Virus record (IMG/VR): IMGVR_UViG_2690316344_000004 | Reading direction: 5' to 3' (one strand) | From: a virus | Lineage: Duplodnaviria; Heunggongvirae; Uroviricota; Caudoviricetes | DNA length: 19,134 nt | Shown: positions 3,001 through 6,000 of the stretch, in pieces | How positions within the stretch are numbered: position 1 is the first letter of the stretch | Layout of the letters: each line of letters starts with the position of its first letter | Position numbers: made by a program

Positions 3001-6000
3001 GTATGGGAAAACTATAGGAAATGCCTAATTACTTGTCAATAGGCTATGCCTAATAATTTGGGCGCGACCTAATAGGTGATGGTTTGTGGGAGAGGTAGTA
3101 GGAGTTAACTAACGGGAACTAGGAATTTCCCGTCGGACCATATAAGTTTAAGTTCCTGTCTTGGTGATGTTCTGGCTTTTCCGTTTTGATTCTTGATTTT
3201 TCAGATAGTTAGCTACCTTCATTTCCATTGCGGCAATGTAGGCGCGAACGTCATGATCAACCCAACTAGGCTCCGTAGCATTTCCAGATAAGAGGAAAGC
3301 CACAATTGCTCTTTTTTCATCAGAGGCGGCTTGATAAAGGCTGTTTATGTCTAAAAGTTCACTTTTTGTATCTGAAGTGGATGGGGTTGGTATGGGGTAT
3401 TCGTTAAGCCCCCAATGCTCTGGACCAACCACATCAGAAAAGAAACGCCATAGTTCTGGAAGTTTGTCTTTACTTATCGAACCTTTCTTAATCCAGTCAT
3501 GGATTGATGGTGGTTGGACTTTGAAATGACGTGCGATTTCCGCCTTTGATTTGACGGCTCCTGATGCAATTTTTTTGTTAATGGCCTGCTCTATCGCTCG
3601 GCCTAAGTCTTTACCACTAAGCATTGCTTAATAGTCTCCTATGCGCATCGCGTTAGGCAATCCCTACTCTCGATGTATTAGGCATAGCCTATTGACAATT
3701 GTATTAGGCTAAGCCTAATATTGTTGCGTGTTTTTTGGAGTTCATTCGATGAAAAAAGATAACTATTCATTCAAACGAGCTTGTGCTGTTGTCGGTGGGC
3801 AATCAGCAATGGCTAGGCTTTTAGGTGTATCTCCTCCAAGCGTAAATCAATGGATCAAAGGTGTACGTCAGTTGCCTGCTGAGAGATGTCCTGCGATTGA
3901 ACGAGCAACAAAAGGTGGTGTCCTGTGTGAAGAACTTCGTCCTGATGTTGATTGGACATACTTACGACGCTCGTCATGTTATTCGCAGAATATGTCGATG
4001 AAGCAACCAAATGACGAAAACGATCATACCCGAAGCATCAAGAGGCAAATGATTCATGAAAATCAAACATGAGCACATCCGCATGGCGATGAATGCTTGG
4101 GCATACCCTGATGGTGAGAAAGTTCCTGCAGCTGAAATAGCCCGGACTTATTTCGAACTGGGGATGACGTTCCCTGAACTGTACGACGACAGCCATCCGG
4201 AAGCCCTGGCCCGTAATACACAGAAAATTTTCCGTTGGCTGGATAAAGACACCCCTGATGCTGTTGAAAAAATTCAGGCTCTGTTACCGGCGATCGAAAA
4301 GGCAATGCCGCCTCTGCTGGTGGCCCGTATGCGCAGTCACAGCTCTGAGTATTACCGGGAGATTGTCGAACGGCGGGATCGGCTGGTGAAGGATGTCGAC
4401 GATTTTGTTGCGTCAGCGGTTGTTTTGTATGACCAGATGAATCGCGGCGGCCCGGCAGGGAATGCTGTGGTGATGCACTAAAAGCACGGTGTTCGGGGGT
4501 TTTATGAGCAGCAAGCTTCATGGTCTTGTCTGGGAAGGGTGCGCCTTCACCGGCATGATCTTATCCAGGGTGGCGGTTATGGCCCGTCTTGCAGACTACA
4601 GCAATGACGAGGGCGTGTCATGGCCTGCCATTGAAACTATCCGGCGTCAGATCGGTGCAAGAAGTGAATCCACAGTGAAATCGGCTATTGCAGAACTGGC
4701 GAAAGAGGGCTGGCTGACGAAGGAAGAGCGTAAGGTCGGTGGGCGTAATGTAAGCAATATCTATCGACTTAATGTGGAAAAACTCGAAGCAGCTGCGGCG
4801 GCGGCGCGTGAGTCATATAAACCGAAAAGAAAAATTAGCCCGGCAAAAAATGACCCGTTAACAGTTGACCCGTCAAATATTGACCCCTCAACGGTTGACC
4901 CGTCAAATTTTGATGGATCAACTGTTGATAAAAAACTGCCGATTAGGGGGGCGATGATTGACCCCGATCCGTCAGTATTAAAACCTGATCCGTCAGATAA
5001 AAGATCTTCTTGTCCGGACGCTTCGCAACCGGACCCGCAGACGGCTGAACAGGATTTTTTAACCCGACACCCTGACGCGGTTGTGTTCAGTGCGAAAAAA
5101 CGCCAGTGGGGAAGTCAGGAAGATTTGGTGTGCGCACAGTGGATCTGGGGACGAATCGTGAGTCTTTACGAGCAGGCGGCCAGCTATGATGGCGAGATCA
5201 CTAGACCGAAAGAACCCAACTGGACAGCATGGGCCAATGACGTTCGCACAATGCGGATGCTGGATGGCAGAACTCACAGACAAATTTGTGAAATGTTTGG
5301 GCGTCTCCAGCGGGATTCGTTCTGGGTAAAAAACATCATGAGTCCGGCAAAACTCCGGGAAAAATGGGATGAACTGGTTATCCGCCTGGGGCGTTCGCCT
5401 GCGCAGCGTTGCGTGAATCACATTTCTGAACCGGACACTGAAATACCGCCGGGATTCAGGGGGTGACGTGTCATGAAAAACATTGCGGCAGTTGGGGTTC
5501 TTGAACGTATTCGCAGACTTGCACCACAGGGGTCGGTTCCACCGTACCGGACGGTGGAGGAGTGGCGGGAATGGCAACTTGCTGAAGGACGAAAACGCAG
5601 CGAGGAGATTAACCGCCAGAATCGCCAGTTGCGGGTGGAAAAAATCCTGAATCGTTCGGGCATCCAGCCTCTGCACAGCAAATGCTCGTTTGCAAATTAT
5701 CAGGTGCAGAACGACGGGCAAAAATACGCGCTGAGCCAGGCCAAATCCATAGCTGACGAACTGATGACCGGGTGCACGAATTTTGTGTTCAGCAGTAAAA
5801 CCGGCACCGGGAAAAATCACCTTGCAGCGGCGATGGGCAACCGGCTGATGGTGAAGGGGCGCAGCGTGATTATCGTCACCGTGTCTGACGTCATGAGCGT
5901 GTTGCATGACAGCTACGACAACGGCAAATCCGGGGAAAAATTTTTACAGGAGCTTTGCGGGGTTGATTTGCTGGTCCTGGATGAAATAGGCGTTCAGCGG

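Follow-up and report, generated by a model that had tools for sequence, protein, structure and literature searches.

The stretch of DNA analysed here, 19,134 nucleotides long (IMG/VR record IMGVR_UViG_2690316344_000004; called the window below, position 1 being its first letter), is part of a lambdoid prophage of Escherichia coli. Its segment 2900..4500 was 99.9% identical to chromosomal prophages in many E. coli strains, and the RefSeq relatives of this segment annotate racR together with a helix-turn-helix protein and a YdaT-family protein. In strain ST648 (NZ_CP008697), the prophage adjoins ompW and carries an integrase, an excisionase, an exonuclease, ydfD, and dicB to the left of racR. 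We describe the immunity region of this prophage, in which the repressor gene racR lies divergent from ydaS and ydaT and in which short inverted repeats accompany a rightward promoter (PR) and a leftward promoter (PL). Its genes and promoters are as follows.

3148..3624, minus strand: racR, repressor gene, 158 amino acids (aa).
3749..4072, plus strand: ydaS, Cro analogue, 85% identical to K-12 YdaS; Pfam PF15943 (YdaS_toxin, 103.9 bits) and P22_Cro.
4056..4481, plus strand: ydaT, CII analogue of the CP-933P type; Pfam PF06254.
4049..4066, plus strand: YdaT-box, ATGATTCATGAAAATCAA, across the ydaT start codon.
3692..3697 and 3716..3721, plus strand: right promoter, PR (the same as PydaST), TTGACA-18-TAATAT.
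3039..3034 and 3016..3011, minus strand: left promoter, PL analogue, TTGACA-17-TATAGT, 11 of 12 consensus bases, the best in the window.
2830..3004, minus strand: predicted 5′ leader of the PL transcript, its start inferred from the -10 hexamer.

The first-pass annotation had likened the repressor and both rightward genes to the Rac module of E. coli K-12. For the repressor, this was borne out. The window protein was 92% identical to K-12 RacR over all 158 aa and scored 246.8 bits against the NCBIfam equivalog NF049929, whose cut-off is 200, in line with the racR annotation of the RefSeq relatives. YdaS, by the identity listed above, is of the Rac type as well. YdaT is not, since its identity to Rac YdaT was 31%, as compared with about 95% to the YdaT of CP-933P from E. 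coli O157:H7 (PDB 8bt1, E value 1.2e-88). The box across the ydaT start codon is identical to the Rac box defined experimentally (PMC11879457). The Rac YdaT-box has stayed with the Rac core while the YdaT protein was exchanged, and a Rac-type ydaS is joined to a CP-933P-type ydaT; the Rac and CP-933P types of YdaT are described in the literature as cross-activating. In RacR itself, no Pfam family was detected at E values up to 0.01, the peptidase S24 autocleavage domain being absent too, so that induction via the lambda RecA route is unlikely. No solved structure related to RacR by sequence was found, and in a published model its C-terminal domain folds differently from that of CI (PMC11014345).

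The palindrome TAGGCNNNGCCTA (TAGGC-N3-GCCTA) occurred three times as an exact match in the 19,134 bases, as against 0.03 expected, and none of 200 shuffles reached three. When up to two mismatches were allowed, 11 matches were found in the window, and 7 of these fell into two clusters about 640 bp apart.

3015..3027: left operator, proximal, TAGGAAATGCCTA, one mismatch; over the PL spacer and -10.
3040..3052: left operator, distal, TAGGCTATGCCTA, perfect; abuts the PL -35; same in K-12 Rac.
3059..3071: possible third left site, TGGGCGCGACCTA, two mismatches, weak.
3618..3630: operator across the racR start codon, TAAGCATTGCTTA, two mismatches; same in K-12; published O3 of Rac (PMC9638921).
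3654..3666: operator in the racR promoter region, TAGGCAATCCCTA, one mismatch; same in K-12.
3679..3691: operator abutting the PR -35, TAGGCATAGCCTA, perfect; in K-12 TAGGCACAGCCTA, with the same half-sites and another spacer.
3705..3717: operator over the PR spacer and -10, TAGGCTAAGCCTA, perfect.

Centre-to-centre spacings within the clusters were 25, 19, 36, 25, and 26 bp. Three full palindromes had been reported by the first-pass annotation, and three exact copies do exist. The two coordinates between the divergent genes were exact and the leftward one, given as 3039..3051, was one base low; the count fell short, as there are seven operator-like sites in all, one of them the published site at the racR start codon.

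Each promoter has one palindrome abutting its -35 and a second one overlapping its -10. The hexamers TTGACA-17-TATAGT to the left and TTGACA-18-TAATAT to the right were as first described. The claim that the palindromes overlap the promoters was amended on the left side, where the perfect palindrome abuts the -35 without overlap and the one-mismatch copy at 3015..3027 overlaps the -10. In the whole 19-kb window, these two promoters were the only sites with at least 10 of the 12 bases of a sigma-70-like consensus. K-12 PydaS has the same two hexamers as PR, and PR is a predicted promoter in this allele.

The right-hand half of this arrangement is already known for K-12 Rac, from electrophoretic mobility shift assays (EMSA), footprinting, and mapping of transcription starts. 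Krishnamurthi et al. (2017) described three GCCTAA/TTAGGC repeats in the K-12 racR-ydaS intergenic region; RacR gave three complexes in EMSA, a 49-bp probe with a single repeat gave one, and chromatin immunoprecipitation with quantitative PCR showed enrichment in vivo (PMC5700373). A 2022 study in Nucleic Acids Research obtained a RacR DNase I footprint, from which a monomer site ATTAGGC and an operator (T/A)TAGGC-n3-GCCTA(T/A) were derived, one operator lying on the ydaS promoter and another, O3, across the racR ATG. The same study mapped a single ydaS start, with -35 TTGACA and -10 TAATAT, found that a -10 mutation kills PydaS, and mapped three racR promoters, one of them leaderless (PMC9638921). 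Four inverted repeats and a RacR octamer in solution have been reported since (PMC11014345). The four right-hand sites of the window (3618, 3654, 3679, and 3705) are positioned as described in PMC9638921, including those on the ydaS promoter and the racR ATG; among the published operator names, only O3 was assigned unambiguously, O1 and O2 not being matched to window sites. In other published work, YdaT is the counterpart of CII, binding ATGATTCATGAAAATCAA and turning on PracR4, a reverse promoter within ydaS (PMC11879457). YdaS was reported as not repressing racR. The counterpart of PracR4 in the window lies within ydaS at 3839..3871 on the minus strand and reads CTGACG / TACGCT, as compared with TTGACG / TACGCT in K-12; the first -35 base is changed, and the gap of about 21 nt between the hexamers is the same.

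Alignment with K-12 Rac placed all seven sites at matching positions, with half-sites held and the central three bases varying. The palindromes first taken for operators are thus also found in the immunity region of Rac, where the half-sites agree and the spacers differ. At 3705..3717, for instance, the K-12 counterpart is TAGGCGTCGCCTA, in which all three spacer bases are changed and both half-sites retained. The left promoter-operator pair downstream of racR is shared as well, and the repressor, YdaS, the PR hexamers, the site at the racR ATG, and the YdaT-box are alike in the two prophages. They differ in that the immunity region here, at about 87% DNA identity, belongs to a separate allele class, in the operator spacers, and in the type of ydaT. 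The left operons also differ, consisting of ydaG, ydaF, sieB, and kilR in K-12 Rac and of a DUF1391 gene, an open reading frame (ORF) of 116 aa, DicF, and DicB in the window. On depletion or silencing of RacR in K-12, left-operon genes (ydaG, ydaF, kilR, racC, recE) were reported to go up 40-70-fold or to be strongly derepressed.

We then compared RacR loci across genera, taking one genome per species. This gave 12 loci, 10 of them distinct, with RacR relatives 58-92% identical, from Escherichia, Mixta, Proteus, Klebsiella, Achromobacter, and several metagenome bins. Palindromes were present upstream of the repressor gene in all 10 distinct loci, including a site orthologous to 3654..3666 in each. 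On the downstream side of the gene, 7 of the 10 had a pair of sites with 25-bp spacing. The position of the distal left operator, 3040..3052, was kept in other genera, and the orthologue of its partner 3015..3027 (TAGGTAATGCCTA in K-12) was also found, 25 bp from the partner site, in loci L007-L010, L012, and L014. In all seven cases the left pair had the same layout: ATTAGGC-N3-GCCTA abutting TTGAC., about 6 nt, then a second site of the TAGGC-N3-GCCTA type whose outer half-site enters a -10-like hexamer. The extracted right and left regions share this design, which reads ATTAGGC-N3-GCCTA, TTGAC(A), about six bases, ATTAGGC-N3-GCCTAATAT. Across genera, each operator is joined to one promoter hexamer, one to the -35 and the other to the -10, and intervening and flanking sequence diverges. 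A symmetrised count over 47 distinct sites, in which the core positions are biased by site selection, showed extra conservation of A at the second and T at the first base beyond the core, with hardly any in the spacer, giving the extended operator form A-T-TAGGC-N3-GCCTA-A-T. Short one-domain RacR homologues in other genera retain the same palindromes. Collectively, this comparative evidence strongly supports a function for both clusters and the assignment of the left one to a promoter.

Three loci from the cross-genus set deserve separate mention. In Achromobacter (L012 5537..5574 and L014 4854..4891), the left pair lies 1.6-2.3 kb downstream of a short repressor of about 77 aa, which suggests extra genes between repressor and PL, like rexAB in lambda or paaA2-parE2 in CP-933P. 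Another locus, L006 (JARKOR010000130.1), sits on a 5.2-kb contig binned as 'Candidatus Nanosynbacter', and its RacR match and operators are the same as those of K-12-type E. coli loci; it is almost certainly a binning contaminant from E. coli.

Within E. coli, the left sites, racR, and the right sites occurred as one unit in 1086 of 5426 complete genomes. Two identity classes were seen: 489 genomes at least 90% identical to the window (131 of them at least 99%) and 597 at 80-90%, including K-12. This immunity core is joined to differing left operons and replication modules.

Taken together, these observations make it very probable that 2830..4481 is a Rac-type immunity (lysis/lysogeny) switch in which RacR bound at its sites shuts both PR and PL. 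Dimers of RacR, the CI analogue, would bind the 13-bp inverted repeats at four sites in or near the racR-ydaS region and at two, possibly three, further sites 100-130 bp downstream of the racR stop codon. RacR on 3705..3717 and on 3015..3027 would block RNA polymerase at the spacer and -10, and RacR on 3679..3691 and 3040..3052, which abut the -35 hexamers, would add cooperative binding. The sites 3654..3666 and 3618..3630, over the racR promoters and the leaderless start, would provide autoregulation. PR would drive ydaS, ydaT, and the replication genes, and PL the DUF1391 gene, the 116-aa ORF, DicF, and DicB. YdaS made from PR would compete for the same sites, and YdaT on its box would stimulate the reverse promoter in ydaS. 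Loss of RacR would release both operons, including the division inhibitors DicF and DicB of the Qin type, which are established as such in Qin.

We infer that RacR behaves in the window allele as it does in K-12 and that PL is a real RacR-repressed promoter. More tentatively, the left and right sites may cooperate via a loop of about 640 bp. It is conceivable, and we would put it somewhat below an even chance, that the conserved downstream pair is the true left operator (OL) of a Rac-type PL and that a RacR octamer bridges two OL dimers and two right-operator (OR) dimers through this loop, placing DicF and DicB under RacR. The paper reporting the octamer assigns it to the four intergenic sites, and the word "loop" is absent from it (PMC11014345).

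Several points weigh against this switch as drawn. Published experiments concern the K-12 allele, whose module is 87-92% identical, and none the window allele. The left promoter-operator pair of Rac is not mentioned in the main RacR papers searchable as full text, a search that left subscription-only papers, EcoCyc, and RegulonDB outside; on the left operon, these papers gave only its derepression at lowered RacR and the Rho-terminator model, and in that searchable literature PL and the left sites are without a published test in any RacR prophage. The downstream pair was not seen in 3 of the 10 distinct loci within the 3 kb fetched. The third left site, 3059..3071, is weak and of uncertain status, only its ACCTAAT half being kept in K-12. 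The number of promoter-like sites with at least 10 of 12 consensus bases was not above chance, block shuffles averaging three; since the count alone is insignificant, the weight rests on the position and conservation of the two sites. YdaS may share the palindromes, which would then not be exclusive to RacR. Lastly, one group ascribes the expression of kilR in K-12 to read-through from the racR promoter, which a Rho-dependent terminator in racR limits, preventing kil expression (PMC4150792).

This terminator points to another route by which the left operon could be expressed, namely read-through from the racR promoters that is silenced by Rho, the downstream palindromes being only auxiliary anchors for RacR oligomers. 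Two features of the window agree with it. The predicted PL leader, about 175 nt long and conserved with K-12 Rac, begins C-rich and G-poor (17 C and 4 G in its first 40 nt), and the interval from racR to the left operon or PL showed no intrinsic terminator. The one hairpin considered as a terminator, at about 3107..3134 on the minus strand, 14 nt past the racR stop, has an 8-bp stem and was rejected, as it has no T run; it was no more stable than shuffles (z -0.66 and -1.39), and a similar hairpin is present in K-12. What speaks against read-through as the route is that a promoter with 11 of 12 consensus bases lies exactly between the left sites, that across genera, where the flanks diverge, TTGACA still adjoins the first site and a -10 still merges with the second, and that the left arrangement duplicates the proven PR promoter. 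We consider this explanation unlikely, although the read-through and PL routes are not mutually exclusive. The C-rich, G-poor leader of PL is possibly a Rho-loading region, consistent with the published Rho/NusG silencing of the Rac left operon.

A second explanation holds that the palindromes are mainly targets of YdaS, or of another factor, and that RacR recognises something else. The published model does have YdaS and RacR competing at the same operators, and PaaR2 and YdaS have overlapping footprints in CP-933P. Yet the K-12 RacR footprint covers the repeats, and the ATTAGGC motif was derived from the protected areas (PMC9638921); the probe of 49 bp with one repeat gives a single RacR complex (PMC5700373); and the short one-domain RacR homologues keep the palindromes. 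We consider this explanation very improbable. Chance matching, or a duplication without function, can be dismissed as the source of the repeats, for even though short repeats in two or three copies may arise randomly and two-mismatch matches are common (5.8 expected), three exact copies stand against 0.03 expected, all seven sites cluster at the two promoters, and the half-sites are conserved across genera with free spacers. The reading in which RacR shuts PR and PL from these sites is the one we retain.

The left operon that would respond to PL contains the following elements.

2677..2829, minus strand: DUF1391 gene (ydfA/ydaF family), Pfam PF07151, E value 2.5e-29; first gene after PL.
2327..2677, minus strand: 116-aa ORF, between the DUF1391 gene and DicF.
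1752..1803, minus strand: DicF small RNA, Rfam RF00039, 76.7 bits against a gathering threshold of 48, full model.
1389..1577, minus strand: dicB, division inhibitor, distal in the operon, Pfam PF05358, E value 1.7e-37, full length.

At the DNA level, the DUF1391 gene is 90% identical to ydfA of Qin and 83% to ydaF of Rac, and the same 50-aa gene is annotated in the RefSeq relatives. The 116-aa ORF has no Pfam or NCBIfam match, and neither Qin nor Rac of K-12 has an equivalent; the ORF sits where Qin has ydfB and ydfC. Past ydaT, 4504..5466 encodes a replication-initiator-like protein (HTH_36 and a weak DnaD_N match) and 5473..6219 an IstB/DnaC-like ATPase.

Local BLAST of the window against the K-12 Rac and Qin regions gave the following map.

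342..2085: Qin match, from ydfE to just past dicF, 96.4% DNA identity.
2086..2685: no Qin or Rac match.
2686..2867: Qin ydfA match, 90% DNA identity.
2842..4079: Rac match, 86% DNA identity.

The left Qin/Rac junction lies at about 2842..2867, within the ribosome-binding region of the DUF1391 gene, and no homology to K-12 Qin was found by local BLAST beyond 2867 on the racR side. The right junction lies 24 bases into ydaT, directly past the YdaT-box. The first-pass annotation had called the left operon Qin-like, which the Rfam DicF and Pfam DicB matches and the identity over 342..2085 uphold, and the region a mosaic of Rac and Qin. Mosaic it is, but made of three parts instead of two, as the cargo is of the Qin type, the immunity core of the Rac type, and ydaT of the CP-933P type. 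The region is a textbook case of lambdoid modular exchange at gene boundaries and opens no new question. Among deposited phages, vB_EcoS-683R6 alone carries most of the module, at 88% identity, which indicates that prophages are the main setting of this immunity type.

The same mosaic character appears when the locus is set beside known switches. With the dicA-dicC/dicBF region of Qin, it has in common a cargo (ydfE-like region, ydfD, dicB, and dicF) that is 96% identical as a whole and a DUF1391 gene that is 90% identical, as well as the layout of repressor gene, PL-like promoter, and DicF/DicB operon. Unlike Qin, the window has no dicA or dicC, dicBp and the DicA operators are replaced by a Rac-type promoter and operators, and the unrelated 116-aa ORF stands in place of ydfB/ydfC. 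CP-933P resembles the window in its YdaT (about 95%), in a box of the TTGATT-N6-AATCAA type, and in its lambda-like logic; there, repression has been demonstrated experimentally for a PL that lies, with its left operators, downstream of the repressor operon, and the repressor is octameric. CP-933P differs in having PaaR2 as its repressor, with 18-bp palindromes (half-site GTTTAGTAA) unrelated to TAGGC-N3-GCCTA, and the toxin-antitoxin pair paaA2-parE2 after the repressor gene, none being present here.

The layout is also that of lambda, with PR facing the cro analogue, PL downstream of the repressor gene, and paired operators at each. Operators in lambda are spaced similarly to the 25-26 bp seen here. 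Its left and right operators are about 2.4 kb apart, whereas the distance in the window is about 640 bp, and the operators are 13 bp long here as compared with 17 bp in lambda. Further likenesses are the divergent repressor and cro genes, the multiple dimer sites over PR, the promoter of the repressor gene (PRM), and PL, an octamer-forming repressor (published for RacR), a CII-like activator of a reverse promoter (published for Rac), and replication genes past the cII analogue.

Elsewhere in the window, 9319..9493 matched the Rfam sok antitoxin RNA (114.7 bits), which implies a hok/sok-type toxin-antitoxin locus, and relatives annotate hokD here. Three tRNA genes (Met-CAT, Arg-TCG, and Arg-TCT) lie at 13738..13987 and are followed at 14064..14254 by a match to the small RNA STnc100 (139 bits); this order is typical for the start of the late region in Stx-like lambdoid prophages.

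The operator interpretation of the region is, then, essentially correct, and the region is a very common mosaic member of the well-studied Rac-type switch and largely ordinary. Our additions are modest: the conserved left promoter-operator pair, an operator definition across genera, and the apparent move of dicBF from DicA to RacR control. E. coli K-12 has few essential transcription factors, of which RacR is one, and research on the RacR switch is active. About one complete E. coli genome in five contains the cassette, which occurs as two allele classes and is joined to interchangeable cargo, and the cross-genus comparison defines its operator more cleanly than the published version. The left promoter-operator candidate is relevant to models of RacR oligomerisation and of left-operon derepression, which concerns kilR and recET in Rac and dicBF here. 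If DicF and DicB do stand under RacR as proposed, lowering RacR in such a prophage would lead to filamentation not only via YdaS and YdaT but also via DicB and DicF.

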